From contig AWOE01000005.1 in NCBI GenBank assembly GCA_000494145.1, positions 1,582-56,686 of the forward strand: DNA of 55,105 bases, read 5' to 3'. Numbering within the stretch: position 1 is the first letter of the stretch; each line of letters opens with the position of its first letter. Source of the stretch: Candidatus Calditenuaceae archaeon JGI OTU-1. GTDB taxonomy: Archaea > Thermoproteota > Nitrososphaeria_A > Caldarchaeales > Calditenuaceae. A model generated the notes under the pieces. That model was not told where the DNA came from and searched no databases. It saw only the letters and a list, made by a program, of their open reading frames with translations. This document shows positions 278-55,105 of this stretch, piece by piece. A program made the translations under genes and the position numbers.

Positions 278-1846
278 TCAGGTAGACCCGCCCTTGGACC
301 TGATCCGCTCGTACACCTCATCCGAGAGCCTCGAGAAGGGCGGAGAGGGCTCGCCTATCTTGTGTCCGGGTTCGACGAGCCTTCCCTCGATGAGCTCCTT
401 CACCGTCCACCTCTCGGGAGGCAGCCTGAAGACCTTCCTGAGCGCCTCGGAGGCCCTCGGCGTCAGCGGTTCCAGAAGCACCGAGACTCCGTAGGCCACC
501 TGCGTCGAGACGTAGAGCGTCCTCATCGCCGAGCTCCTGTCGGTCCTGATCGCCTTCCACGGCTCCCTTGCGTTCAGGTAGACGTTCCCCCTCTTTGCCA
601 GATCGAGGACCGCGTTGACCGAGCTCCGGAACCTGTTGCTCACCAGGCCGCGCTCGGACTCCTCGGCAGCCGTCCTGATCGATGCCAGCAGCTCCAGGTC
701 TTGGGAATCGAGATCTCCTGGCTCCGGAACTATTCCGTCGAAGTTCCTGTGGACGAACGTCAGGACCCTGTGGACGAAGTTGCCGATGATGTCGTTGAGC
801 TCGTCGTTGATGACGTCCCTGAAGTGGGAAGCGGTGAAGTTGGAGTCCGCAGTCTCAGGCCTTATCTTCACGAGGTAAAACCTCCAGTAGTCCGGTCCGA
901 GGATCTCGAGGGCTTCGTCGAGCCAGATGCCGACGCCTGCGCTCTTGGAGAACTTCTTCCCCTCAAATGTCAGGTACTCGGTCGCAAGAACGTTCCACGG
1001 CAGGACGAGGTCCTCGTCGTATGCCATCAGAAGCGCTGGCAAAATTATGGTGTGGAAGGGTATGTTGTCCTTGCCGATGAAGTAAACGCTCCTCGCCTCG
1101 CGGTCGTACCAGAACTCCTTCCACGCCTCCGGGTCGCCCTTCATCTCGGCCCACTCGATGCTCGCAGTGATGTACCCGAGGACCGCCTCGAACCAGACGT
1201 AGATCGTCTTCCCCTCCGCGCCGGGGAACGGGGCCGGGATGCCCCACCTGTTGTCCCTTGTGACGGACCTGGGCCGCAGACCCTCGCCGATCCACCCGAT
1301 CGAGAAGTTTCTCACGGAGTCAGGGAACCGGTCGTTGGACGCGATCCAGGCCTTTATCCTCTCCTCGAAGGCGGGGAGGTCGAAGAACCAGTGATCGGTC
1401 GACTTGGTGACGGGCTCGGCACCGCAGATCGCGCACCTCGGGCCTCTCAGGTCCAGCGGGTCGAGGACCTTGCCGCACCGCTCGCACTGGTCGCCCCTTG
1501 CCCTATCGTAACCGCAGTGGGGGCAGGTTCCGATCACGAACCGGTCGGGAAGGAAGACCCTGTCCCTCTCGCAGTAAAGCTGCTCTACGCTGCGTCTGAA
1601 GATGTAGCCCTTCCGATAGAGCTCGAGGAAGAACTTCTGGACGAACTCGATGTGCGTTCTGGAGTGGGTCCTGGTGTAGTTGTCGAAGGTGATATCGAAC
1701 CGGGCGAAGAGGTCCTTCACCAACGCGTGCATCCGGTCCGTCAGATCCTCCGGTCTCACACCCTCCTTGATCGCCTGGAGCTCGAGGGGTGTCCCGTGCT
1801 CGTCGGAGCCGCTGACGAAGAGAACTTTGTCGCCCTTCGACCTCAT
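278..1846 (-). CDS. metG: methionyl-tRNA synthetase (coordinates run from the first canonical in-frame ATG; conserved coding continues 5' to at least 1948, see findings)
   Basis: 522-aa ORF with class-I aaRS hallmarks: GSDEHGTP, zinc knuckles CPHCGYDRARGDQCERCG and CAICG, and a KFSKS (KMSKS-type) loop. The HIGH-type motif (PHLGT) is encoded in in-frame codons upstream of the ATG. Confidence 0.9.
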   Translation of the reverse strand: MRSKGDKVLFVSGSDEHGTPLELQAIKEGVRPEDLTDRMHALVKDLFARFDITFDNYTRTHSRTHIEFVQKFFLELYRKGYIFRRSVEQLYCERDRVFLPDRFVIGTCPHCGYDRARGDQCERCGKVLDPLDLRGPRCAICGAEPVTKSTDHWFFDLPAFEERIKAWIASNDRFPDSVRNFSIGWIGEGLRPRSVTRDNRWGIPAPFPGAEGKTIYVWFEAVLGYITASIEWAEMKGDPEAWKEFWYDREARSVYFIGKDNIPFHTIILPALLMAYDEDLVLPWNVLATEYLTFEGKKFSKSAGVGIWLDEALEILGPDYWRFYLVKIRPETADSNFTASHFRDVINDELNDIIGNFVHRVLTFVHRNFDGIVPEPGDLDSQDLELLASIRTAAEESERGLVSNRFRSSVNAVLDLAKRGNVYLNAREPWKAIRTDRSSAMRTLYVSTQVAYGVSVLLEPLTPRASEALRKVFRLPPERWTVKELIEGRLVEPGHKIGEPSPPFSRLSDEVYERIRSKGGST

Positions 1847-1985
1847 GTAACGGGCGAAGACGTCGGCCGATAGCTCACACCCTATCAGCGTGCCGAGGTG
1901 TGGGACCGCGTTGATGTAAGGCCACGCGCCGCAGACTATCCACTTCGCGAGGGCACCTCACCCCTGACCTTGCTCCTGTCGCCAC

Positions 1986-1992
1986 AATTTAA
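1986..1992 (-). promoter_or_regulatory. TATA-like box (TTAAATT) 24 nt upstream of GTG 1961 (metG region)
   Basis: Same box-to-start spacing as rps11 (24), sufU (23), cdvC (22), ctaB (25) and the tRNA-Ser 5' end (25). A second box TTTATTG (2018-2012) lies 24 nt upstream of TTG 1987. Confidence 0.5.
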
Positions 1993-2301
1993 CCGGACGC
2001 GTTAAGGCAGACAATAAACCTTATCTGCGTGCGTTTACTAATAGTCATGCGCATGAAGGGATCCGTCCTGCTCGGAATCGTCGTAGTCGTAGTGGTGGTG
2101 GCCGTCGAAGCGGTCCTTCTCCTGGTGATGCAGTAGGCGGCTCCAGGCGCTGAGCAAGTGCAGGAGCAGAGGGTCATCAAAATTGGAGCTATATGCGACC
2201 TGACAGGCGCAACCTCTGACGTCGGGAAGCCCTACTGCTTATGAGTTCTCGACGCGGTCGAGTGGTTCGAGAAGAATTACCCACTGCCCAAGGGATACAA
2301 G

Positions 2302-3123
2302 GTGGACCTGGCGTGGGTCGATTACAGCTACAAGATCCCGGAGGCACAGGCCGCCTACAACAGGTGCAAGGCCGAGGTCGCAAACCGGTTCGGCTTCAAC
2401 TCGATCTGGTCGGTCCCCATGCTCTACGTCAGGCTCGTCAACAGGGCTGGAGAGGTGAGGTTGCCCGACGGGATCAGGTACTGCCTCTCGGCCGGAGGCT
2501 ACCTCCCGCCCGACGTCCAGCGGGCTTTCAAGGAGTCATTCGGGGCACCTCTGGTCCAGCTTTACGGCCTGACGGAGGGGTGGGCGGTCACCGTCCAGCC
2601 TCTCGAGATGGCCGACCGGTTGGGGACGATCGGTCTGCCGCTGCCGGGGGTGGAGCACAAAATCGTCAGGGAAGACGGCACGGAGGTGAAGGAGCCCGGA
2701 GAGGTCGGCGAACTCCACGTCAAGTCTCCCTGGATCATGCTCGGCTATTCGGACCCGAGGGACACGGAGAGGGCCATCGTGGACGGCTGGCTCAAGACGG
2801 GGGACCTCGTTTCCGCTGACGAGTCGGGCCTCCTCTACTTCCGTGGAGTCAAGAAGAGGATGATCAAGTACAAGGGATATCCGATATTCCCGAGGGACCT
2901 GGAGGAGGTCCTGAAACGGCACCCGGCCGTCAAGGAGGCCCTCGTCAAGGGCGAACCTGACCCTGAGGTCGGCGAGAGGCCGGTGGGATTCGTGGTCCTG
3001 AGGGAGGGCTATGAAGGCAAGGTGAGCGAGGGGGAGCTGATGGACTTCGTCAACTCGAAGGTGGCGGGTTACAAGAAGCTGAGGGCTCTGCGGATCGTCG
3101 GGAGCCTCGAGGAATTGAAATAG
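2302..3123 (+). CDS. AMP-dependent acyl-CoA synthetase/ligase, C-terminal ~270 aa only (possible gene remnant)
   Basis: Adenylate-forming motifs A5-A10 are present: LYGLTEG, GELHVKSPWIMLGY, WLKTGD, GVKKRMIKYKGYPIFPRDLE, KVAGYKKL. There is no TSGTTGxPKG P-loop, and only about 90 aa precede YGLTE. The frame is closed 5' by TGA 2242-2244. Confidence 0.6.
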   Translation: MDLAWVDYSYKIPEAQAAYNRCKAEVANRFGFNSIWSVPMLYVRLVNRAGEVRLPDGIRYCLSAGGYLPPDVQRAFKESFGAPLVQLYGLTEGWAVTVQPLEMADRLGTIGLPLPGVEHKIVREDGTEVKEPGEVGELHVKSPWIMLGYSDPRDTERAIVDGWLKTGDLVSADESGLLYFRGVKKRMIKYKGYPIFPRDLEEVLKRHPAVKEALVKGEPDPEVGERPVGFVVLREGYEGKVSEGELMDFVNSKVAGYKKLRALRIVGSLEELK

Positions 3124-5192: not shown

Positions 5193-6897
5193 CTGATCTG
5201 ATGTAGACCAGTACCCCCAGCGAGATCAGCAGTGCCGCAACCGCGACGGCTCCTGCTGTTCCCACGACCTCAGGGCCGATAACGCTCTCACCGACCTGGA
5301 CGCCCCTCACGTATATCGTCAGGGTGATAGGCCCATCGATCTGCAACTCGCGCCGCTCGATGACCTGTCCCGCGAGGACTGCCTCCACGATCACAGCCCC
5401 TCTCACCGGCACGACGAAGCTCGCCTCCCCGTCAGCCATCTGGACCGGCAGCGGTTCGTTGTTCTGCCAGGCCCTGACCTGGATCCCCCTTACCTGCGAC
5501 CCCATCCAGTCCTTGTACGTCAGTGTGACCGGTATCGAGACGCCTCTCACCTGCAGGTTCGAGGGAGGCGACGAGAAGTCGATTTTCTCGGTCTGGACCG
5601 TCATGCCCCTGTAGACGACCTTGAGCTGTGAAGGGACGGGAAGCACGGCGAACCTAACGGTGCCGTCGTTGCCGGAGGTCACGGTGATCTTTCTGTCCGT
5701 TCCCGGCTCTGTCACCTCCACAGCCGCTTCCGGAAGGGGAGAACCGTCGGGCTTCAGGAGAGTTAGGGTGACCTCTCTTCGCGGGAGCTCGAGTCTGAGG
5801 TCGCTGACGGGACCGATGATGCGGACGGTCTCGTTCAGCAGAGCTTTTCCGCTAAGGATGACCCTGAACTCGATTTCGCCGACCCCTGGCAGCGTGCTGA
5901 GGGGAAGGTCCTGGAAGCTGACCCGCCCGGAATCGTCGGTCGAACCCCTCGCGATCCTTGAACCCGAAGACGAGCGAGCCTCAACGGATGCGCCCTTCAC
6001 GGGGTCGGAGCCGTCGGCGAGGATCAAGACGTCGACGTCGGCCACATTGAGGATCAAAGTTCTGTTGGAGGGCTCGAAGATCGTCAACGAGTCCGTCAGA
6101 ACGGTCACCCTTGTTCCCGCGTAGGCCTTGACGACCGTCAGGTTGTAAGGGCCGACCACCTGGGAGGTCGGGACACCACTGACGAGGGCCTCTCCTTTCG
6201 CGACGCTCATGGTGAAGAGGACACCGTCGGCCGACAGCCTGAGCTCAACCTCGCTCACCGGCTCACCCCGCATGTCGATCAACTCGAACCGCAGCTTGAC
6301 GAGGGGTGCCACGAGTTCCAGCGTCCTGTTCAGCGGATCGTGATTTACGGAGGTTTCGAGGACCGTCGCGTTCATCACCTTGGCGGTGATGGTGTAGGTT
6401 CCGACGTCTTTGAGCGTGGAGAGCGGGAGGTTGCTGAAGGAGACGGTTCCGTCCTCGGACGTCGTCGCGGAGCGTGTGACCTTTCCGGTCGATGACGTGA
6501 TCTGAACCGTTACGCCCCTGACGCCCGTTCCCTCAGCGTCGAGGATGCGGGCCTTTAGCTCGGCGACCGCAAGCCTAACGACCCTCTCGCCCTCGTGCGG
6601 CACCCTGACCGTCTCGTTAGCCACCGGGACGTTATCGACTGTAACCTGAACGTTGTACTCTCCGGGCGAGAGGCCCCTGAAGGTCGCGATGCCAGCGGTT
6701 GTGGTCCTGAACGCCCGCCTGAGCGTAGAGTTGGTGAGGACGACCTCCACGTTCCCGACCGGGTTGCCGTCGTAATCGACCACCTTCAGCTGCAGGTCGC
6801 TCGTCTCTGCGAAGGCCGTCTGGACATCGATCGTGGACAGGAGGAGCATTGTGATCAAGGCGAACGCTGCGGCCGCGGCTTCACGACGTCCGATCAT
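5167..6897 (-). CDS. secreted, C-terminally membrane-anchored surface protein with at least 5 CarboxypepD_reg/Ig-like repeats
   Basis: 576 aa. Signal peptide MIGRREAAAAAFALITMLLLSTIDVQTAFA. Repeated ~80-aa modules of the form (V/L)xDxxGxPVxxxxVxxxxxxG...T...DGxVxFxxLP. C-terminal TM helix plus basic tail. At least 7 N-x-S/T sequons (NST, NET, NAT, NRT, NLT, NRT, NET). Confidence 0.7.
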   Translation of the reverse strand: MIGRREAAAAAFALITMLLLSTIDVQTAFAETSDLQLKVVDYDGNPVGNVEVVLTNSTLRRAFRTTTAGIATFRGLSPGEYNVQVTVDNVPVANETVRVPHEGERVVRLAVAELKARILDAEGTGVRGVTVQITSSTGKVTRSATTSEDGTVSFSNLPLSTLKDVGTYTITAKVMNATVLETSVNHDPLNRTLELVAPLVKLRFELIDMRGEPVSEVELRLSADGVLFTMSVAKGEALVSGVPTSQVVGPYNLTVVKAYAGTRVTVLTDSLTIFEPSNRTLILNVADVDVLILADGSDPVKGASVEARSSSGSRIARGSTDDSGRVSFQDLPLSTLPGVGEIEFRVILSGKALLNETVRIIGPVSDLRLELPRREVTLTLLKPDGSPLPEAAVEVTEPGTDRKITVTSGNDGTVRFAVLPVPSQLKVVYRGMTVQTEKIDFSSPPSNLQVRGVSIPVTLTYKDWMGSQVRGIQVRAWQNNEPLPVQMADGEASFVVPVRGAVIVEAVLAGQVIERRELQIDGPITLTIYVRGVQVGESVIGPEVVGTAGAVAVAALLISLGVLVYIRSVRAALRAR

Positions 6898-16521: not shown

Positions 16522-17523
16522 ATGTACAGGCTGTTGGTTCTGACGAGGGTCCTTGACCGATACCTCCTGCGGCTGCAGAGGATGGGGAAGGCGGCGCTCT
16601 ACGCCGAGGCGATGGGCGAGGAGGCCGCGATGGTCGGTTCAGCCCTGGCCCTCCATCCGGAGGACGTTGTCTTCCCATCTTACAGGGAGCTGGGAGTCTT
16701 TCTCGTTAGAGGGGTCCCGGTTTCGGAGATACTTGACAGGCAGCTGAACACCGTTGACGACCCGCTGAAGGGCCACGAGTTCGCGGTCTTCGGAGACAGG
16801 AGGTTCAACATCGTCCCGGCCCCTACGCCGGTTTCGACGCAGATACCGATGGCGGTAGGTTACGCTCTGGCCTTCAAGATCAGGGGCGAGAGGAGGCTGG
16901 TGGTCACCTATTTCGGCGACGGAGCGACGTCGAAGGGCGACTTCCATGAGGGCATCAACTTCGCCAGCGTCTTCAAGCCTCCGATAGTCTTCATCTGCAT
17001 GAACAACCAGTACGCGATCTCGACGCACGTCAGCCGTCAGACGGGCTCGGCTACGATAGCGCAGAAGGCAATAGCGTACGGGCTTAGCGGTTACAGGGTC
17101 GACGGAAACGACGTCATCGCGATGTACCTCGTATCGAGGTCGGTCTTCGAGGAGGTAAGGGACGGAGGTGATCCGGTGCTCATCGAGGCGGTCACCTACA
17201 GGCTCGGAGCCCACACGACCAGCGACGACCCGAAGAGGTACAGGTCCGAGGAGGAGGTCCAGCAGTGGATGAAGAAGGACCCCGTGGACAGGATGAGGGC
17301 CTACCTCATCGCTAAGAACGTCATCGGCGAGGAGGACGACAGATCGCTCTGGTCCGAGGTCGAGGCCTTCGTCTCGGCTGAGGTGGAGAGGGCCCTCGCC
17401 AAGCCGGGCCTGGAACCCGAGGTGATATTCGAGGACGTCTACGCGGAGCCGACGCCGCAGCTGAGGGAGCAGATCGAGGAGTTTCGGCAGCAGCTCAGGA
17501 CCGAGAGGGTGATGAGGGGATGA
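16522..17523 (+). CDS. 2-oxoacid dehydrogenase E1 component alpha subunit (TPP-dependent); the true start may be ATG 16431 with a frame problem, see findings
   Basis: 333 aa. YRELGV, TPP motif [17 protein letters not shown] ... NNQYAIS, and [12 protein letters not shown]. Confidence 0.85.
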
Positions 17524-20900: not shown

Positions 20901-22051
20901 GGAGGGTCGCGATAGTGGGTGCCGGCATGACCGACTTCAGGTCGATGCTGCCCCACAGCTCCCCTGAGATGATAAGGGAGGCCGTCAGGAGGTGCCTCGA
21001 CGACGTGGGTTCGCTCTCGATCCGTTACGTGGACGGCGTCCTCTGCGCCTCGGCTCCCGACGCCTTCGACGGATACCACGACAAGGTCTCGATCGCCAAC
21101 GAGGCGGCCTGTGCGATCGGGAAGCCCGTCACGAGGGTCTTCGTGGGAGGGGGAAGCGGGGTCGCGGCTGCCGTCTCGGGATGGTACCACGTCGCCTCCG
21201 GACTCTTCGATACGCTCCTCGTCGTAGCGTGGGAGAAGATGAGCCCTCCGTACCCTCACGCCCAGAAGCTCTTCCAGACGATCTTCGAGCCCGTCGTAGA
21301 GCAGCCGCTCGGGCCGAACCTGATCTGGATATTCGCGCTCGAGATGAGGAGGTACATGGAGGCGCATAACCTGTCGAAGGAGCTCATCGCGGAGGTCGCC
21401 GTGAAGAACAAGGCCAACGCCCTCGACCACCCCCATGCGCAGCTCGGAGCGAGGATCACGGTGGAGGACGTCCTGAAGTCGGAGGTGATGGTCTGGCCGG
21501 TCAACAGGCTGGACATCAGCCCCACATCCGACGGCGCGGTGGCCGTCCTCTTGGCGTCTGAGAACGTGGCGCGGAAGCTCACGGACACACCGGTGTGGAT
21601 CGACGGCGTGGCGACGTGTCTGGACTCGCAGTACTGGACCAACAGGGACCTGGCGTTCCCGTACTACGTCTACCTCGCCGCACAGAAGGCCTACAGGATG
21701 GCGGGGATAACGAACCCGCTTAAGGAGGTCGACGTCTGGGAGCCGTACGACCCGTTCACCTACAAGGAGCTCCACCACCTCGACGGCCTTCTCGGGAAGC
21801 CGGGCTTGGCGCCGAGGTTGCTGAAGGAAGGCCAGCTCCACAGGGACGGGGATCACCCAGCATCGCCCTCCGGTGGTCTTCTCGGCGTAGGGAATCCTAT
21901 CGCCGCTGCAGGGCTGATGAAGGTCGCGGAGCTCTACTGGCAGCTCTCCGAACGGGCGGGGAAGAGGCAGGTGCCCAACGCTTACGTCGGCGTCGCTCAG
22001 GCCTGGGGAGACCTCATGCAGGTCGGGACGGTGGTGGTGTGCAGGAGATGA
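20897..22051 (+). CDS. thiolase-fold protein, SCP2-thiolase-like, catalytic motifs degenerate (paralog B)
   Basis: 384 aa. VAIVGAGMTDF ... PVTRVFVGGGSGVAAAVSGWYHVASG ... WEKM matches the archaeal/SCP2 thiolase scaffold, with Gly at the nucleophile Cys position. YDPF replaces HDCF, and GVGNP replaces GHP. GTGA overlap with paralog A. Confidence 0.75.
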   Translation: MRRVAIVGAGMTDFRSMLPHSSPEMIREAVRRCLDDVGSLSIRYVDGVLCASAPDAFDGYHDKVSIANEAACAIGKPVTRVFVGGGSGVAAAVSGWYHVASGLFDTLLVVAWEKMSPPYPHAQKLFQTIFEPVVEQPLGPNLIWIFALEMRRYMEAHNLSKELIAEVAVKNKANALDHPHAQLGARITVEDVLKSEVMVWPVNRLDISPTSDGAVAVLLASENVARKLTDTPVWIDGVATCLDSQYWTNRDLAFPYYVYLAAQKAYRMAGITNPLKEVDVWEPYDPFTYKELHHLDGLLGKPGLAPRLLKEGQLHRDGDHPASPSGGLLGVGNPIAAAGLMKVAELYWQLSERAGKRQVPNAYVGVAQAWGDLMQVGTVVVCRR

Positions 22052-22698
22052 GCGTGAGGCTAGTTAAGTTCGGTGGCGAGACGCTCGCGGGGCTCGAGGG
22101 CAGGCTGGCTGAGCTCCTCTCGAAAGCTGCAGCCGAGGTCGGCGAGGGGAGGGTAAGCTCGTGGGCTAAGGCCTTGGAGGAGTCGAAGGGGAGGACGGAG
22201 TTCGAGGCGCCGGAGACGCTGGTGGTGACCCCGTACCTCCTCGACTTCAGGTACAGGAGGAGCACGGGGATCGCCCTGACGAGGTTCCTCGAAGGCCTGA
22301 AGGAGGGCAAGTTCTTGGGGACGAGGTGCAGCGGCTGCGGCCGCGTCCTGATACCTCCCAGGACCTTCTGCGAGTGGTGCTTCAGGAGGGTCGACGAGTG
22401 GATCGAGCACAGCGGCGAGGGCGAGGTGGCGACCTACTCCATCGCATACATCGGCACCAACCCGAAGGTGAGGCTCCCGAAGCCCGAGCCGATCGCGGTG
22501 ATCTGGTTCGAGGGGACGAAAGTGGTCAGGCCCAACACCAGGACCGTCGCCCACGCGGCGGGCATACTGCACAGGCTGGGAGAGGTCGAGCCCCAGGAGA
22601 TCATGATAGGGATGAGGGTGAGGCCGGTCTGGAGGCCGGAGGAGGAGAGGGTGGGGAGCATCACCGACGTCCTCTACTTCGCATCGGTCAGGAGGTGA
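22039..22698 (+). CDS. DUF35 protein (Zn-ribbon + OB fold) with ~80-aa N-terminal extension
   Basis: 219 aa. FLEGLKEGKFLGTRCSGCGRVLIPPRTFCEWC (4-Cys ribbon) followed by an OB-fold segment GEGEVATYS ... IGMRV. Alternative starts are ATG 22048 and GTG 22054. Confidence 0.75.
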   Translation: MQEMSVRLVKFGGETLAGLEGRLAELLSKAAAEVGEGRVSSWAKALEESKGRTEFEAPETLVVTPYLLDFRYRRSTGIALTRFLEGLKEGKFLGTRCSGCGRVLIPPRTFCEWCFRRVDEWIEHSGEGEVATYSIAYIGTNPKVRLPKPEPIAVIWFEGTKVVRPNTRTVAHAAGILHRLGEVEPQEIMIGMRVRPVWRPEEERVGSITDVLYFASVRR

Positions 22699-22797
22699 GG
22701 GGAAACGGTCGGCGAGTTCAGGCACTCGATCGAGAACCCCTACGAGTACCCGGCAGGCTTCGCCCTCTCGGTCTTCCTCGAGGGCCTGCGGAAGGGC

Positions 22798-23106
22798 GTG
22801 CTGAAGGGCTCCAGGTGCACCTCTTGCTCGCGGAGCTACATACCGCCCTTCGCTTTCTGCCCGCACTGCGTCGACTCGAAGGTGGAATACGTTGACGTCC
22901 CGGGCGAGGGCAGGGTCGTCACCTGGACGAGGACGAAGGACGGCACGGTCCTCGTGTTCGTGGCCTTTGACGGCCTCGAAGGTGGGATCCTCCACCGTTA
23001 CGTTGCCGGAAGCGATCCGGTTGAGGGCATGAGGGTCAGGCCGAGGTTCAGGGCAGAGCGCGTCGGTTCGATACTCGACATAGAGGGATTCGAGCCTGCA
23101 CGCTAA
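22798..23106 (+). CDS. DUF35 protein, second copy (coordinates run from the first canonical in-frame start; the conserved N-terminal part lies upstream, see findings)
   Basis: 102 aa from GTG 22798. RCTSCSRSYIPPFAFCPHC ribbon plus an OB fold (GEGRVVTWT ... EGMRVRP). The 33 in-frame codons upstream encode the paralogous FALSVFLEGLRKG segment. Confidence 0.65.
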   Translation: MLKGSRCTSCSRSYIPPFAFCPHCVDSKVEYVDVPGEGRVVTWTRTKDGTVLVFVAFDGLEGGILHRYVAGSDPVEGMRVRPRFRAERVGSILDIEGFEPAR

Positions 23107-27544: not shown

Positions 27545-27563
27545 GTTGATCAACCTGCGCAAC

Positions 27564-27571
27564 ATTAAATA
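27564..27571. promoter_or_regulatory. single AT-rich TATA-like element (ATTAAATA) in the 62-bp divergent region between the wHTH paralog 2 gene and nurA
   Basis: 19-21 nt from ATG 27544 on the minus strand (leaderless geometry) and 35 nt from ATG 27607 on the plus strand. Confidence 0.5.
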
Positions 27572-27606
27572 GCCGCCAATTCCCAATATCGGCAGGTGCG
27601 CCGGCG

Positions 27607-28551
27607 ATGGGCGTCAAGCTGGCCGACCTCAACACCCTTGAAAACGGGTGGCTCTTATTTAACAGTATTGCAGAAAGCTGGGTCAAAGAGCTCCTGAGGC
27701 TCCGAACAGAGGAGAACGGCGGTTTCTTGCTGAACAGTTTCGCCAACGATCAATTGGTGGAGGACGACATAGTTCTGCTCGGACAAGTTGAACAGGATGG
27801 GTTCAAGGAGCTGTCGGCGATTCTCCCCGGGACCAAGAGGAGGGTCGTGGCTGTCGACGGCTCGGTCGTCCAGCTCGGGTTCGTTGGAGGCAGGGCGCTC
27901 CTCTCTCTGAAGGCAGCGATCGTCGAGCGGGAAGGCCGATCGTTGAGGGTCAAGGTCGTGGGGCCGCTGCCGAAGCTGGCATGGATCGACGAGAACGCGC
28001 CATCGTCCGATACGGTCGCGCTCCTCGAGCTCAGGCGTTTCGAGGCGATGATCCAGAGGCTGGTGGCGAGGACGGCAGGCGATGCGTTGCTGTTGTTCGA
28101 CATGCCGCTGACGAGGATGGCAGACCTTACGATTTCGGGCGATGGTACAACTGTTGTCGGCATCGCGAAGAACAGCGTCCTCGCGACCCACCTCGGCCGA
28201 TCGCTGGCGAGATCCGGCTCTCTGGCTCTCCTCGCGAGGAGGTTGCCACAGGACCCAATCGTCGGGGCGGAGATCTCGGTGACCGTGGTGCGACTTGCTC
28301 CCAACGGTCTGGCGTTCAGGGCCGACGTGATGCCCGCCGACCGGTGGGTCGAGTCGTTGTCAGACCTGGCCGCGAGCGATGCGCTGATCTCAGGTTACCC
28401 CGAGACCTTGGCGATGGCCCATGCCTTCTCGAGGCACAGCTGGATCGAGGTAGTTGCGTCGAAGGCCGTCCTGGAGAAGAGGCTGGGACTGAAGTTGGTT
28501 GACGAGCTGGACGTGAGGGGAGCGGTTCTTCTGCCCTTCGATGGGAGATGA
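27607..28551 (+). CDS. nurA: NurA-family nuclease
   Basis: 314 aa. RVVAVDGSVV (motif I Asp), ELRRFEAMI (conserved Glu region), ALLLFDMPL (motif III Asp). ATGA overlap with the herA-like gene downstream. Confidence 0.65.
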   Translation: MGVKLADLNTLENGWLLFNSIAESWVKELLRLRTEENGGFLLNSFANDQLVEDDIVLLGQVEQDGFKELSAILPGTKRRVVAVDGSVVQLGFVGGRALLSLKAAIVEREGRSLRVKVVGPLPKLAWIDENAPSSDTVALLELRRFEAMIQRLVARTAGDALLLFDMPLTRMADLTISGDGTTVVGIAKNSVLATHLGRSLARSGSLALLARRLPQDPIVGAEISVTVVRLAPNGLAFRADVMPADRWVESLSDLAASDALISGYPETLAMAHAFSRHSWIEVVASKAVLEKRLGLKLVDELDVRGAVLLPFDGR

Positions 28552-37444: not shown

Positions 37445-38100
37445 CCCAGCAGCTCCGCAACCGCGTACTTACCGATCCCTTCGCTGACGCTGACCCTCAC
37501 GACCACAGGCTTCACGGACAGCGAGGTGAGAAGGCGTCTCGCGATGTGGGCAGCGATGTTCTCGGCCGTCGACTCTCCCTCTATCACCGCCACCCTGCTC
37601 TGGGGGACCCAGAGGTCGTAGCTCCCTCCGAGGCCCTCGAAGGAGACGAGGTAACGGCCGTCCTTGAGATCCACGATGTACCTGCGCGAGACGATCAGCT
37701 TGTGGTCGAGCTCCTCTATCACCGATTTGACGGCGCTCTTCAGGACGCCGAAATCGAGTACGTATCCCTCGGCGTTCTTCGGGCCGGTGACCTCGACCGA
37801 TACGGACGCCGTGTGGCCGTGCAGCGTCGAGCACTTCTCTATGTGCGGGAGGAAGTGGGCGTAATCGAAGTTCAGACCCCTCTCCGCCACCCTCACCGTC
37901 GCCACATCGTCCTCGACCACAAACCCCGCTCCCCTCAGCTCGTCGCCGTTCCGGAATTTGATCGAGAACCTTCCGTTCTCGTGGAAGGAAGCCTGCATCC
38001 CTTCGGTCCTCAACTCCTGCGCACCGTCAACTTCTACGAGCTCGTAACCGACGCCGTGGGCCGCGAGGACCCTCTCCAGAAGCGTTCTGATCGAACCCAA
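37441..38100 (-). CDS. queD: 6-carboxytetrahydropterin synthase QueD-like (PTPS fold) with ~70-aa N-terminal extension
   Basis: 219 aa. FDYAHFLPHIEKCSTLHGHTASVSVEV ... DFGVLK ... LDHK matches PTPS/QueD. ATGA overlap with queC. TTG start. Confidence 0.65.
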   Translation of the reverse strand: MGSIRTLLERVLAAHGVGYELVEVDGAQELRTEGMQASFHENGRFSIKFRNGDELRGAGFVVEDDVATVRVAERGLNFDYAHFLPHIEKCSTLHGHTASVSVEVTGPKNAEGYVLDFGVLKSAVKSVIEELDHKLIVSRRYIVDLKDGRYLVSFEGLGGSYDLWVPQSRVAVIEGESTAENIAAHIARRLLTSLSVKPVVVRVSVSEGIGKYAVAELLG

Positions 38101-38198
38101 CCGCCCTACCTCTTCAGGTTTGCGATCTCAGCGCCGCAATATAGCCTGAACTCCCTCTCCCGGACCGTTGAGCGGTAAAGGGCCATGACGTACCGACC

Positions 38199-49469: not shown

Positions 49470-50120
49470 GTGATCGTCCTCGCCTTCGATGTCTTCGGGA
49501 CCCTCTACGACGTAGGCAGCTTGGTCTCGGCAGCGGAGGGCATCGTCCCCAACCCAGAGGCGTTCGTCAGGACCTGGCGGGCGAAGCAGCTGGAATACAC
49601 TCACTTGCTGTCGATGATGGAAAGGTACGAGAGGTTCTGGAACGTGACCGAAAGGGCGCTGCGGTACACCCTGAGGCTCTTCGGCATCTCCCTCAGCGAC
49701 CAAGGAGTCGAGGAGCTGATGGGTGCATGGCTCAGGTTGAGGCCGTACGGCGACGTTCCGGAGGCCCTCGCCCGCTTAGCTGAGAGGTTCAAGCTGGTGA
49801 CGCTGACGAACGGTGACAGAGAGATGGTGGACGCTCTGCTCAGCAACACCGGCCTGAGGGGGTTCTTCGCCGACCTCCTGACGGCCGATGAGGTGGGCAT
49901 CTACAAGCCCAGCCCGAAGGTCTACGCCCTCGTCGAGAGGCTCGGGGTGAGCAGGAGCGAGGTCGGCTTCGTCTCCTCGAACCCCTGGGACGTGGCTGGA
50001 GCGGGCGCTGCGGGTCTTACTCCGATCTTCGTCAACAGGCACGGACTTCCACAGGAGGAGCTCGGCATCGTCGCCCGGGTCGAGGTGAGGGACTTGAGGG
50101 AGCTGGCAGAGAGGCTTTAG
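49470..50120 (+). CDS. HAD-superfamily hydrolase, L-2-haloacid dehalogenase-like (type II)
   Basis: 216 aa. FDVFGTLYDV (DxxGT motif I), LTNG, YKPSPKVY, SSNPWDVAGAGAAG. Confidence 0.75.
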   Translation: MIVLAFDVFGTLYDVGSLVSAAEGIVPNPEAFVRTWRAKQLEYTHLLSMMERYERFWNVTERALRYTLRLFGISLSDQGVEELMGAWLRLRPYGDVPEALARLAERFKLVTLTNGDREMVDALLSNTGLRGFFADLLTADEVGIYKPSPKVYALVERLGVSRSEVGFVSSNPWDVAGAGAAGLTPIFVNRHGLPQEELGIVARVEVRDLRELAERL

Positions 50121-54017: not shown

Positions 54018-54827
54018 CTACGCTCCGACGACCGCGAGTATCTGCTGCATGAGGCGGGCGTTGCTGGTCGCGATCAAAGGGTAGCGGTTCCTGGTGACGA
54101 GCTCCATCCCTTCCGGGTCGGTGCCGCCGGTCCAGAGCGGGCATCCCAGACGTTTGAGGACGTACATTCCGGGGACTATGTCGAAGACCCTCATCTCGGG
54201 CGTCAGGCAGATGTAGGCGTCGAGCACGCCCAGCGCTATCTGCTCGAGCTCGACGAGCGACGACCCGAGGTTTCTGATGTGCTTCAGGTTCCTGAGTATC
54301 GCAAGATACCTCTCCGCATCCCTTGGTCCCCTCTTGGCTGCCCTGAAATCGAGCGACACGACCGACTCCCTGAGGTCCTCGACGTCTGACGGTCCACTGG
54401 CTCCCTCAGGTAGCTCAACGCCGTCGTCTCCCGCCAGCACGAGTTCTCCGCTGTAGAAGTCCAGCACGCCTGCTGCGAAGACGTCCTTGAACCGCTGCGA
54501 GGACGAGATGGCTATGCCGGCACCGAAGTGCCGCAGCTTCCGCCTCATGTTGGTGCTGCCGTCGACCGGGTCGATCAGCACCACCAGATCCTCCTGCTCC
54601 GCTCTGATTATGCCCGACTCCTCGGCGACGACCGTGCACCTCCTCAGATCGATCGACTTAGAGAGCTCCCTCATGATGGCCTCTTCGCACATCAGGTCGG
54701 CCACCGTCGCCATGTCACCGAAGCCTCCGCGCCTGACCCTCTGAGCCGCCGTCCCCTTCCTCTCCAACTCCCTGTAGACCTCCATCGCCCTCGCCAACGC
54801 CGTCCTGATCAGCTCGCTAGGATCCAC
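54018..54827 (-). CDS. suhB: inositol monophosphatase / fructose-1,6-bisphosphatase family (SuhB-like)
   Basis: 269 aa. VVAEESG, VLIDPVDGSTNM, and a C-terminal WTGGTDPEG region (WD-like motif). Confidence 0.75.
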   Translation of the reverse strand: MDPSELIRTALARAMEVYRELERKGTAAQRVRRGGFGDMATVADLMCEEAIMRELSKSIDLRRCTVVAEESGIIRAEQEDLVVLIDPVDGSTNMRRKLRHFGAGIAISSSQRFKDVFAAGVLDFYSGELVLAGDDGVELPEGASGPSDVEDLRESVVSLDFRAAKRGPRDAERYLAILRNLKHIRNLGSSLVELEQIALGVLDAYICLTPEMRVFDIVPGMYVLKRLGCPLWTGGTDPEGMELVTRNRYPLIATSNARLMQQILAVVGA

Positions 54828-55105
54828 CGGCCCTCGCCCTCCTCCTCACCCCTTTCGCCTCCAGTGCCCTTTTAACGTGTGAGAAGAGGAGCGGGTACCT
54901 TTTCGCCAGCTCGGCCTCGACGAGTTTGGCTAGCTCGCTGCTTATGCTGAACCTCGGCTGCGTGTTCTTCAGGTAGTTCAGGACTGCCGCGGCCACCGGC
55001 GAGTAAAAGGCCAATCTCGGTTGCGAGACTGCCTGCGAGACGCTGATCAAGACTGCCTTCCTGTCGATCTGCGTCTTGCTTCCCTCCTCTGTCCCCCGTC
55101 CCTTC
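54817..55105 (-). CDS. hypothetical small protein, 5' end outside the window
   Basis: The reverse-strand frame stays open to the window edge (KGRGTEEGSKTQIDRKAVLISVSQAVSQPRLAFYSPV ... KRALEAKGVRRRARAGGS). Overlaps the suhB-like start by 11 nt. No recognisable motif. Confidence 0.35.
   Translation of the reverse strand, partial: KGRGTEEGSKTQIDRKAVLISVSQAVSQPRLAFYSPVAAAVLNYLKNTQPRFSISSELAKLVEAELAKRYPLLFSHVKRALEAKGVRRRARAGGS

Follow-up and report, generated by a model that had tools for sequence, protein, structure and literature searches.

The bacterial gene infC, encoding IF3, starts at AUU, a non-AUG codon that is kept for regulation, and the yeast aminoacyl-tRNA synthetase genes GRS1 and ALA1 have isoforms that start at the non-AUG codons UUG and ACG, respectively. 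In E. coli reporter assays, codons that are not near-cognates of AUG initiate at well under 1% of the AUG level. In mammalian cells, Starck et al. reportedly found in 2012 that initiation at CUG can depend on Leu-tRNA, and to our knowledge nothing comparable is known in archaea. The characterised mRNAs of TACK archaea start at AUG or GUG paired to Met-tRNAi, and aIF1 has been reported to discriminate against non-canonical codons (PMC11698992, PMC6237735). Programmed +1 frameshifting has been described for prfB at CUU-UGA-C with an upstream Shine-Dalgarno (SD) motif and for Ty3 at GCG-A-GUU (PMC5009743, PMC8211752), and a 2021 review does not list +1 frameshifting in archaea (PMC8211752). The methionyl-tRNA synthetase (MetRS) gene metG of Candidatus Calditenuaceae archaeon JGI OTU-1 appears to differ from the characterised TACK mRNAs in its start codon. 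We analysed it within a stretch of 55,105 nucleotides of this genome (the window) and compared it with its homologs across the order Caldarchaeales. A literature search returned no report of CUC, CUA or UUA as natural start codons in archaea or bacteria, nor of the feature described here.

Coding sequence upstream of the first canonical start of metG

The first ATG, GTG or TTG of metG is the ATG at 1846 (Table 1). It is preceded by 37 in-frame sense codons (1957-1847), none of which is ATG, GTG or TTG, and an in-frame TGA (1960-1958) closes this stretch on the 5' side. A preliminary description of this DNA had given the same layout, and its coordinates were confirmed throughout. The ORF from ATG 1846-1844 to the stop TGA 280-278 is the 522-aa protein that gene callers report. 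The chance that 37 codons contain no start-type codon is (61/64)^37, or ~0.17 by our own arithmetic, which is not rare. What goes beyond chance is that these start-less codons are the most strongly conserved part of metG.

The 37 codons encode the first Rossmann strand and the HLGT (HIGH) motif. In the extended translation, residues 7-399 match PF09334 (tRNA-synt_1g) from profile position 2 to 391 of 391 (4.8e-152), indicating that the catalytic domain begins upstream of the first canonical start, and PF19303 (Anticodon_3) is matched as well (2.1e-13). A complete class I MetRS is thus encoded, with a full catalytic Rossmann domain and the MetRS anticodon-binding domain; besides the HLGT motif before the first ATG, the translation contains KFSKS and the zinc knuckle CPHCG...CERCG...CAICG, and the closest homologs of the protein are annotated as methionine--tRNA ligases of Caldarchaeales.

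Table 1. Features of metG and its 5' region, with positions in the window.
Feature	Position	Strand	Remark
metG main ORF	278..1846	minus	first canonical ATG 1846-1844 to stop TGA 280-278; 522 aa
N-terminal coding stretch before first canonical ATG	1847..1948	minus	HLGT (HIGH signature) at 1900-1889; onset of Pfam tRNA-synt_1g
ATA near-cognate codon, rival start	1937..1939	minus	used as start by NCBI PGAP in 70-72% relatives
CTC, proposed non-canonical initiation codon	1949..1951	minus	6 nt after GGTGA
Spacer GGTGCC between SD and start position	1952..1957	minus	exactly 6 nt in 20/20 lineages
SD motif GGGGTGA (core GGTGA 1962-1958)	1958..1964	minus	spans GTG 1961-1959 and TGA 1960-1958
TATA-like promoter box TTAAAT(T)	1986..1992	minus	A/T-only hexamer in a 61% GC genome

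Compared with five relatives, the 37 codons show 6-17.5 synonymous and 0-5.5 non-synonymous differences, corresponding to a dN/dS of 0-0.085, and the value for the whole of metG is 0.08-0.24. Together with the Pfam onset, this bears out the earlier view that the upstream codons are real coding sequence. More than 20 independent Calditenuis assemblies (metagenomes and MAGs), which come from different springs and projects, have an identical layout. As the alignment with orthologous metG loci showed, it recurs in every relative examined across Caldarchaeales, at 71-72% identity (loci L009, L010 and L028), 59-60% (L011 and L036) and 56-58% (L076-L079 and L080-L086), that is, down to 56% protein identity. 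These sequence comparisons indicate that metG is under strong purifying selection and, by all appearances, intact and functional. The start arrangement, as part of the proposal set out below, would be ancestral to the order Caldarchaeales.

A Shine-Dalgarno motif and the codon at the start position

The preliminary description treated the GTG and the TGA upstream of the 37 codons separately. What it missed is that the two together form the SD motif GGTGA, at the 6-nt spacing that is the commonest SD-to-start distance within the window. Canonical genes of the window with GGTGA plus 6 nt start at 6897, 20897 and 31606, and those with GGTGA plus 7 nt at 17520 and 35285. By parsimony on a 20-taxon tree, the GTG shows 0 changes and the preceding G 1 change, and the base after it is a purine (A or G) in every case, which would give an A-U or G.U pair with the anti-SD. 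In some lineages the motif is longer, up to GGAGGTGA(TC): it reads GGAGGTGA in L009, L010 and L028 and GGAGGTGATC in L077. The invariant GTG, the conserved flanking G and purine and these extended motifs identify GTG plus TGA as an SD, and with a spacing of 6 nt after GGTGA the TGA falls in frame every time. In L009, L010 and L028, a tight S8e-SRP19-Gar1-like cluster ends with metG, whose SD is perfect over 8 nt; inside this operon only an SD-led start makes sense. Neither tRNA nor rRNA genes were found within the window.

In relatives that have their own TATA-like box, the box lies 24-28 nt before the GTG and the intervening spacer is hypervariable. In other genes of the window the distance from such a box is 23-26 nt to a leaderless start or ~24-25 nt to an SD, and the order of TATA, ~24-25 nt, SD, 5-7 nt and start is also found at the starts 27607 and 38100. 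No conserved RNA structure was detected in the 5' region of metG (0 covarying pairs, z = 0.03), and a search of this region for known RNA families gave no Rfam match and no SECIS-like element.

The per-site change counts on the same tree locate the onset of coding constraint. Reference rates are 6.8 changes per site for non-coding positions, 1.2 for coding position 1 and 0.76 for coding position 2. The stretch between box and TGA is hypervariable (~6.8 changes per site) and shows a 1-nt indel even between relatives that are 93% identical (25 nt in L004 against 26 nt in L007). The six spacer sites (5, 5, 8, 3, 3 and 5 changes) are near the non-coding rate and far above coding positions 1 and 2. 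Strong constraint begins at the Leu codon that follows (1, 0 and 2 changes per site), and codons 3-9 have a low synonymous rate, as expected near a translation start.

With GTG plus TGA read as an SD, it is CTC 1951-1949, in the start position, that needs explaining. This codon aligns with the ATG, TTG or GTG start of outgroup MetRS (MGKWIV...; M/L/V-G-K-W-I-V), for instance in L039, which reads GGAGGTG-N7-ATG GGC AAG TGG ATA GTA TGC, and by alignment CTC is positionally homologous to the start codon of other TACK-archaeal MetRS. The start-position codon is followed by one for a small residue (A, G or T), like position 2 of the outgroup proteins. Across Caldarchaeales the start-position codon is CTC, CTA or TTA, and only L078 has a canonical TTG, at exactly this codon; the GGTGA motif and its distance of exactly 6 nt are kept in 20 lineages. 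CTC, CTA and TTA each differ from ATG by two mismatches, whereas recognised alternative starts (NUG, AUN, ACG and others) differ by one. The codon always encodes Leu, as an ordinary internal Leu codon would, and outgroups with short N-terminal extensions hold a hydrophobic residue there (MLSLGKW, VFRLGKW). This is weak evidence against initiation, since six of the eight YUN codons encode Leu.

A similar appearance, GTGA followed by an in-frame ORF, is found in a DUF35 paralog of the window (22699-23106). Here GGAGGTGA plus 6 nt leads to ACG 22705, and the proteins of relatives begin with MAGEFR..., with the M aligned to that ACG, suggesting that SD plus 6 nt marks the start position in this gene too. 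The inositol-monophosphatase gene at 54849 is the only other case of TATA...GTGA followed by an ORF in the +1 frame; an in-frame GTG six codons later fits its Pfam boundary, and we regard the arrangement as coincidence. Five ORFs with long open upstream stretches (16522, 46039, 8721, 47859 and 18514) are normal, their Pfam domains beginning after the canonical start.

We consider SD-positioned initiation at a non-canonical YUN codon, CUC in metG, to be the best reading of this locus, and would put its probability at roughly 45%. It is supported by the purifying selection, the order-wide layout, the SD geometry, the homology of CTC to outgroup starts and the point at which constraint sets in. 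Transcription would be directed by the TATA-like box at 1992-1987, with the SD GGTGA 1962-1958 following ~24 nt later and CTC 1951-1949 another six nt on. The small subunit would be placed by pairing of the SD with a presumed anti-SD, and translation would then start at CUC 1951-1949, with (M/L)AKWIV... as the predicted N-terminus. The codon may be read by Met-tRNAi despite two mismatches or by another tRNA, and so weak a start codon may serve regulation. It is quite doubtful that the MetRS mRNA is initiated without any codon-anticodon pairing to Met-tRNAi, the ribosome being placed purely by the SD and the first codon being read by an elongator Leu-tRNA or the initiator being accepted independently of the codon. 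If this were true, MetRS synthesis would no longer depend on the supply of Met-tRNAi, or would be inversely coupled to it, and throughout Caldarchaeales the Met-tRNAi-independent start would be conserved as a bootstrap or feedback device.

Other possible starts and decoding events

An unlikely alternative is a (near-)leaderless mRNA that starts at GUG 1961-1959 through Met-tRNAi and undergoes an obligatory +1 shift at the initiation codon (GUG-A-GGU...), giving M-GALAKWIV.... The TATA-like box stands at the leaderless distance (23-26 nt), so the 5' end of the transcript may coincide with the SD or fall inside it; in that case GUG 1961 would be favoured as a 5'-terminal start. As described earlier, this GTG is off frame by 1 nt, and its distance from TTAAATT (1992-1986) is 24 nt; counted from TTAAAT, the 25 nt are inside the 23-26 nt range of leaderless starts in the window. 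Lineages with their own TATA box show TATA-N24-28-GTG-R followed by an ORF one base off register. The GTG never varies, not even to ATG or TTG. Three codons further on, the Leu codon switches between synonymous codons, as would be expected of an internal Leu, and in some outgroups the protein begins precisely three codons ahead of this Leu (P0100, MLSLGKW; P0045, VFRLGKW). However, all these features already follow from an SD GGTGA at 6-nt spacing, and GTG is the SD core too. No slippery or hungry-codon motif is kept, and the second codon varies in both frames (AGG, ATG, AAG, GTC, ACG and others in one; GGT, TGT, AGG, TCA, CGG and others in the other). The frame opened by the GTG shows no sign of coding constraint and has early stops in L011, L036, L077 and L078. 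A third-position bias that would have marked the two codons after GTGA as translated was dropped, because the tree-aware changes (5, 5, 8 and 3, 3, 5; totals 8, 8 and 13) lack significant 3-periodicity (chi-square P ~0.4) and are near the non-coding rate. At 49470 the window has a leaderless GTG-A gene that is read in frame 0; a shift in metG would therefore call for a signal of its own, and neither such a signal nor an RNA structure was found. In L009, L010 and L028, moreover, the gene is internal to an operon and preceded by the perfect 8-nt SD. We know of no precedent for a +1 shift at the initiation codon itself.

Initiation at the near-cognate ATA 1939-1937, giving MVCGAWPY..., is a poor prospect. 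NCBI PGAP annotates P0005 and P0006, from relatives at 70-72% identity, as MVCGAWPY from ATC or ATA, and table 11 allows ATA, ATC and ATT. The codon is ATA, ATC or ATT in Calditenuaceae and in L011, L036 and L078, CTG in L076 and TTG in L077, but GTT in Caldarchaeum and L084 and GTC in L086. The preceding L-(A/G)-K-W is conserved as protein, with K/R exchanges, and is shared with outgroups (MGKW), and the ATA is 18 nt from the SD, well past the 6-7 nt most common in the window. The AAG at 1945 is disfavoured as a near-cognate start as well; its exchange between K and R codons (AAA, CGA, AGG) points to an encoded basic residue.

Decoding of TGA 1960-1958, by read-through, as Sec or as Trp under a changed code, after an upstream start such as TTG 1987 is hardly credible. 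The TTG at 1987-1985, put forward in the preliminary description, is indeed in frame and 24 nt after TTTATTG (2018-2012); L011, L036 and L078-L084 have TGG instead of TGA, and in three Caldarchaeum species an ATG or GTG stands in frame 2-4 codons further upstream. Yet this TTG lies within the TATA-like box, and the stretch from there to the TGA in Calditenuis is a hypervariable promoter spacer with 1-nt indels, in which neither a conserved peptide nor a conserved translated sequence with its own start is seen. Just upstream, L078 has an in-frame TAG and L079 an in-frame TAA. In Caldarchaeum the upstream "peptides" show no conservation, and only 12-18 nt separate them from the TATA box. Within the window TGA acts as a stop, ending both metG itself and DUF35#1, and a SECIS-like or other Rfam element is absent.

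It is just as improbable that the C/G run was misassembled by 1 bp, or that this gene is a pseudogene and another metG supplies the function: a single-base deletion would bring GTG 1961 into frame and gene callers shorten metG everywhere, but more than 20 independent assemblies agree on the register, selection on the affected codons is not relaxed (dN/dS 0-0.085), the layout is no private lesion, being kept down to 56% identity, and a scan of the genome collection, which is blind to a divergent second copy, gave one metG locus per MAG. The earlier suggestion of a slip or miscount in the CCC run, including a plain assembly error at 1951-1953, falls on the same agreement among assemblies and on five loci (L005, L006, L037, L038 and L068) in which the run is interrupted (GCT CTC) at the same length; nor is CCC-U, or any other shift site, conserved across the order. 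From the preliminary description there remain the coding upstream region and the inability of ATG, GTG or TTG to start a complete MetRS here, whereas its two initiation scenarios do not hold.

Annotation consequences and comparison with known systems

All gene callers mis-annotate metG. Gene calls in relatives fall on three false starts, V18 (P0001), M38 (P0002 and P0007) and L21 (P0016), which lose the HIGH motif, and PGAP uses arbitrary ATA, ATC or ATT starts for P0005, P0006, P0008 and P0011. As a result, MetRS in Caldarchaeales MAGs looks shortened or pseudogenised, and the false starts could affect completeness estimates, phylogenomic markers and metabolic reconstructions. If initiation at CUC is confirmed, an essential housekeeping gene would have, as its only productive start throughout an order, a codon two mismatches from AUG and outside the accepted start-codon repertoire of bacteria and archaea. 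Either SD-positioned initiation complexes in archaea would be more tolerant than is recognised, or a dedicated mechanism would be at work. Calditenuis is available as a stable enrichment culture (Calditenuis ramacidaminiphagus G-10) with a tryptic metaproteome (MSV000093641; PMC12979851), so that the proposed metG start is now testable.

The signals around metG resemble those of initiation in the TACK archaeon Saccharolobus solfataricus, with a TATA box ~25 nt upstream, a GGUGA-type SD and short or absent leaders (PMC11698992, PMC6237735), and leaderless and SD-led genes are both seen within the window, as in that species. With the +1 frameshifting of prfB and Ty3, metG shares an SD-like element beside an in-frame UGA and an ORF that is +1 from an upstream start codon; unlike them, it has neither a conserved shift codon nor an upstream ORF of any length, and its GUG and UGA are in different frames. 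The proposed start at a Leu codon, possibly without Met-tRNAi, recalls the mammalian CUG case, although that route is eukaryotic and minor, concerns antigenic peptides and uses a near-cognate codon.

As in GRS1 and ALA1, the N-terminal part of an aminoacyl-tRNA synthetase is encoded before the first AUG and would be reached through a non-AUG start. In those genes the codons are near-cognate and yield a second, mitochondrial isoform beside the AUG-initiated one, whereas MetRS, with its HIGH motif encoded before the first ATG, would depend on the non-canonical start for its only active form. The comparison with infC differs in that AUU is one mismatch from AUG and the metG codon (CUC, CUA or UUA) two, and in that IF3 itself judges start codons; MetRS is no fidelity factor, and a regulatory loop for metG is hypothetical. 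MetRS does charge the initiator tRNA, which makes a regulatory purpose plausible. Like infC, metG is an essential gene of the translation apparatus with what would be a conserved poor start codon behind a good SD, and the conservation of so weak a codon suggests that it is selected rather than tolerated.

Reading frame and conservation of the metG 5' end

The frame of metG, the methionyl-tRNA synthetase (MetRS) gene, is open for 37 further codons upstream of ATG 1846 (1957-1847), none of which is ATG, GTG or TTG. The Pfam MetRS catalytic domain aligned from residue 7 of the extended translation, which corresponds to profile position 2 of 391, so the codons for the first beta-strand and the HLGT (HIGH) signature all precede the first canonical start. 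The preliminary description of the ORF, the 37 codons, the TGA, the GTG and the TTG was accurate in every detail.

Features of the metG start region, codons found 6 nt after GGTGA, and the DUF35 paralog
Feature	Position	Strand	Remark
metG ORF	ATG 1846 to TGA 280-278	minus	522 aa
TGA closing the metG frame upstream	1960-1958	minus	in frame
GTG	1961-1959	minus	1 base out of frame; 25 nt after TTAAAT (1992-1987)
TTG	1987-1985	minus	in frame, but within A/T box TTAAAT
CTC 6 nt after GGTGA			Calditenuaceae, L086
CTA 6 nt after GGTGA			Caldarchaeum, L011, L036, L084
TTA 6 nt after GGTGA			L076, L077
TTG (canonical start) 6 nt after GGTGA			L078
DUF35/ChsH2-type zinc-ribbon OB-fold paralog #2	22699-23106	plus	no canonical start 6 nt after the SD

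The nearest proteins are MetRS of Candidatus Calditenuis (family Calditenuaceae, order Caldarchaeales, former Aigarchaeota), and one metagenome contig (L029) was 100% identical. Gene calls in the relatives are truncated, beginning at VPHLG (P0001), MRSKGD or MRSRGD (P0002, P0007) and LGTLIG (P0016), or were started by the NCBI pipeline at ATC or ATA (P0005, P0006), ATA (P0008) and ATT (P0011), indicating that the start problem is not private to the window. The locus DNA of the relatives was retrieved and the metG 5' ends were lined up, a comparison that the preliminary description had suggested, and the layout proved to be order-wide. The register is identical in more than 20 independent Calditenuis assemblies from different samples, and the layout is kept at 71-72% identity (L009, L010, L028), 59-60% (L011, L036) and 56-58% (L076-L086, four Caldarchaeum species among them). 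Five loci have GCT CTC in place of GCC CTC, which interrupts the suspected C-run and leaves its length unchanged. With such agreement in register, an assembly error in this run is hardly credible as the cause. Compared with five relatives, the 37 upstream codons carry 6-17.5 synonymous and 0-5.5 non-synonymous differences (dN/dS 0-0.085), and dN/dS for the whole gene is 0.08-0.24. As judged from these substitution patterns, the N-terminal stretch is translated and under strong constraint and metG is functional, and a pseudogene is very improbable.

The Shine-Dalgarno site and the codon at the start position

The unit conserved in all lineages is G-GTG-R, in which GTG has undergone no changes and the preceding G one, and the next base is always A or G. 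L077 has the longer form GGAGGTGATC, and L009, L010 and L028 have GGAGGTGA. At the 16S 3' end the partner of GGUGA would be UCACC, with A-U or G.U as the last pair according to whether the base is A or G. By its sequence, the unit is a crenarchaeal-type Shine-Dalgarno (SD) motif. GGTGA precedes ordinary genes of the window by 6 nt (starts 6897, ATG; 20897, GTG; 31606, GTG) or 7 nt (17520, 35285), and SD variants precede starts 7368, 27607, 30662 and 231. When the spacer is 6 nt, the SD's TGA and the start codon necessarily share a frame and the SD's GTG is one base out of it, as is seen in all three canonical genes with this spacing. The GTG and TGA of metG are both present as first described, but they are neither frameshift site nor stop; jointly they are one ribosome-binding site, GGTGA, read in two frames. 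A compact same-strand cluster of ribosomal protein S8e, SRP19, a Gar1-like gene and metG (about 2050-3000) ends with metG in L009, L010 and L028; stop and start codons overlap in it, the SD GGAGGTGA is perfect over 8 nt, and an SD-led internal start is expected there, whereas in Calditenuis metG is served by a TATA box of its own.

Two other genes of the window (27560-27609, plus strand; 38100-38150, minus strand) exemplify a class whose leader is very short: a TATA box is followed by about 24-25 nt, an SD (GGTGC or GAGGTAG), 5-7 nt and a start codon, which would leave the SD right at the transcript's 5' terminus. This deserves attention, since an SD duplex and eS26 of TACK ribosomes are reportedly incompatible (PMC11698992).

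A Leu-type codon lies 6 nt past GGTGA in 20 of 20 lineages, with zero indels. Outgroup MetRS (other TACK and Asgard archaea) begins M/L/V-G-K-W-(I/V)-V, and the outgroup locus L039 reads GGAGGTG-N7-ATG GGC AAG TGG ATA GTA TGC. On this alignment, the Leu codon of Caldarchaeales, CTC in the window, is homologous in position to the ordinary start codons of the outgroups, and GGTGR to an ordinary SD. The codon after the Leu codon specifies A, G or T, small residues that the outgroup proteins have at position 2. Tree-aware counts gave 5, 5, 8, 3, 3 and 5 changes at the six spacer positions, near the non-coding rate, 1, 0, 2 in the Leu codon, and 1,2,4 / 1,2,2 / 0,0,0 / 4,0,5 / 0,0,0 / 1,0,1 in the codons after it; by these counts, constraint on the sequence begins at CTC. 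The context is favourable: position -3 is mostly a purine, and +4 is G in every lineage except one. Third positions of codons 3-9 are unusually quiet, reflecting a low synonymous rate as would be expected near a start.

At codons 8-9 (GTC TGC; 1931-1936, minus strand), third-position changes number 0 and 1 versus a typical ~5 on the 20-taxon tree, which points to nucleotide-level constraint around the metG start; no conserved RNA structure was found near it.

DUF35 paralog #2 served as an internal control. In the region 22690-23106 it is preceded by AGGAGGTGA, whose TGA doubles as the stop codon of paralog #1 (22048-22698). No canonical start comes before GTG 22798, which is within the zinc-ribbon domain, and the codon 6 nt after the SD is ACG 22705. 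Its relatives (75-96% identity; P0121, 96%) start MAGEFR/MADEFR..., with M aligned to ACG; therefore, in a gene where GTGA runs into an in-frame ORF, the start position is 6 nt past the SD and not at GTG. Together with metG, at least two genes of this genome have a non-canonical codon there, and a screen of the other ~55 window genes found no further case. For paralog #2, a near-cognate start changed from ATG to ACG, a recent pseudogene and a UGA read-through fusion of both paralogs are all possible. An inositol-monophosphatase-family gene (54827-54862, minus strand), with TTAAAA-N20-GTGA followed by GGA GGA GGG CGA GGG CCG and a GTG start at 54827, looks like metG in having the SD TGA in frame, but its canonical start comes six codons later and the resemblance was judged a coincidence.

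Proposed initiation at CUC and competing readings

We propose that metG translation is initiated at CUC 1951-1949 under the lead of the SD, a model to which we assign a probability of about 0.45. A difficulty is that CUC, CUA and UUA have just the central U in common with AUG. A literature search found no report of natural CUC, CUA or UUA starts in archaea or bacteria, and discrimination by aIF1 against codons other than the canonical ones has been described (PMC6237735, PMC8211752). CUC might be decoded by Met-tRNAi despite the mismatches or by another tRNA, and the weak codon perhaps serves autoregulation. Leaderless start codons in this genome lie 23-26 nt from the TATA box; the metG box is at that distance, so the transcript may begin at or within the SD.

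In the main rival reading, such a transcript could use GUG 1961 as its 5'-terminal start, with a +1 shift then being obligatory, to give M-GALAKW..., which would account for the Leu codon varying among Leu codons only and match outgroup proteins P0100 and P0045, which start three codons ahead of that Leu. We consider this unlikely: beyond features already explained by the SD it has no positive support, no shift motif is conserved, the second codon is variable in both frames, no RNA structure was found, the operonic lineages do not fit, and the leaderless GTG-A gene at 49470 is read in the normal way. An argument from coding periodicity in the two codons after GTGA was removed by the tree-aware count. 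The slip within the CCC run that had been suggested likewise lacks a conserved shift motif, and the run is interrupted in the five GCT CTC loci. According to a 2021 review, archaea have one programmed frameshift only, a -1 event, and no +1 (PMC8211752). A start at ATA 1939, chosen by the NCBI pipeline, is less probable still: other lineages have GTT or GTC as the homologous codon, and L-A/G-K-W just before it is conserved at the protein level.

Read-through of TGA 1960-1958 is very improbable, including the proposed route from TTG 1987, which falls inside the A/T box. The box-to-TGA stretch is hypervariable (~6.8 parsimony changes per site, versus 1.2, 0.76 and 5.1 for codon positions 1, 2 and 3 on the same 20-taxon tree), has a 1-nt indel among 93%-identical relatives, and differs wholly among L070, L072 and L073 despite their identical first 29-51 available metG codons. 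TAG (L078) and TAA (L079) occur just upstream, and TGA is a working stop in the window, terminating metG and DUF35 paralog #1. Something else takes the remaining probability.

Around the metG promoter (window 1962-2020, minus strand; loci L070 and L072-L075), the box-to-SD spacer and all sequence upstream of it differ completely among L070, L072 and L073, and several metagenome contigs terminate 50-150 nt inside metG. The window and L005 have an AMP-binding remnant as the upstream neighbour, and L001 has PCuAC directly. The promoter thus has the look of a point of rearrangement or recombination between strains. The remnant (2245-3123, plus strand) is a 5'-truncated acyl-CoA synthetase matching Pfam from profile position 248 of 384, with no N-terminal half nearby; it may be retained in this species group, because L005 and L006 have a truncated AMP-binding call (171 aa) there too. 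Divergent from metG is a small hydrophobic ORF, MRMKGSVLLGIVVVVVVVAVEAVLLLVMQ (about 2046-2136, plus strand), which may encode a small membrane peptide; its counterpart by position in L005 and L006 is a called gene of 57 aa.

Relation to known initiation systems

The anomaly first noted is real, but its nature differs from what was proposed, being an SD followed by no standard start codon. Order-wide conserved absence of such a codon at the well-formed ribosome-binding site of an essential gene is, on the comparative evidence, real and unusual. It would represent a new variant of non-canonical initiation, and more than that if Met-tRNAi is not used. A Calditenuis enrichment and metaproteome exist (PMC12979851). 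The likeness to prfB, in which an SD stands beside UGA, is superficial, as metG has no shift site. The closest working likeness is infC (AUU), an SD-led gene whose poor start codon is deliberate, and the non-AUG-initiated aminoacyl-tRNA synthetase isoforms of yeast work alike; both classes are defined by a near-cognate codon, whereas metG does without one.
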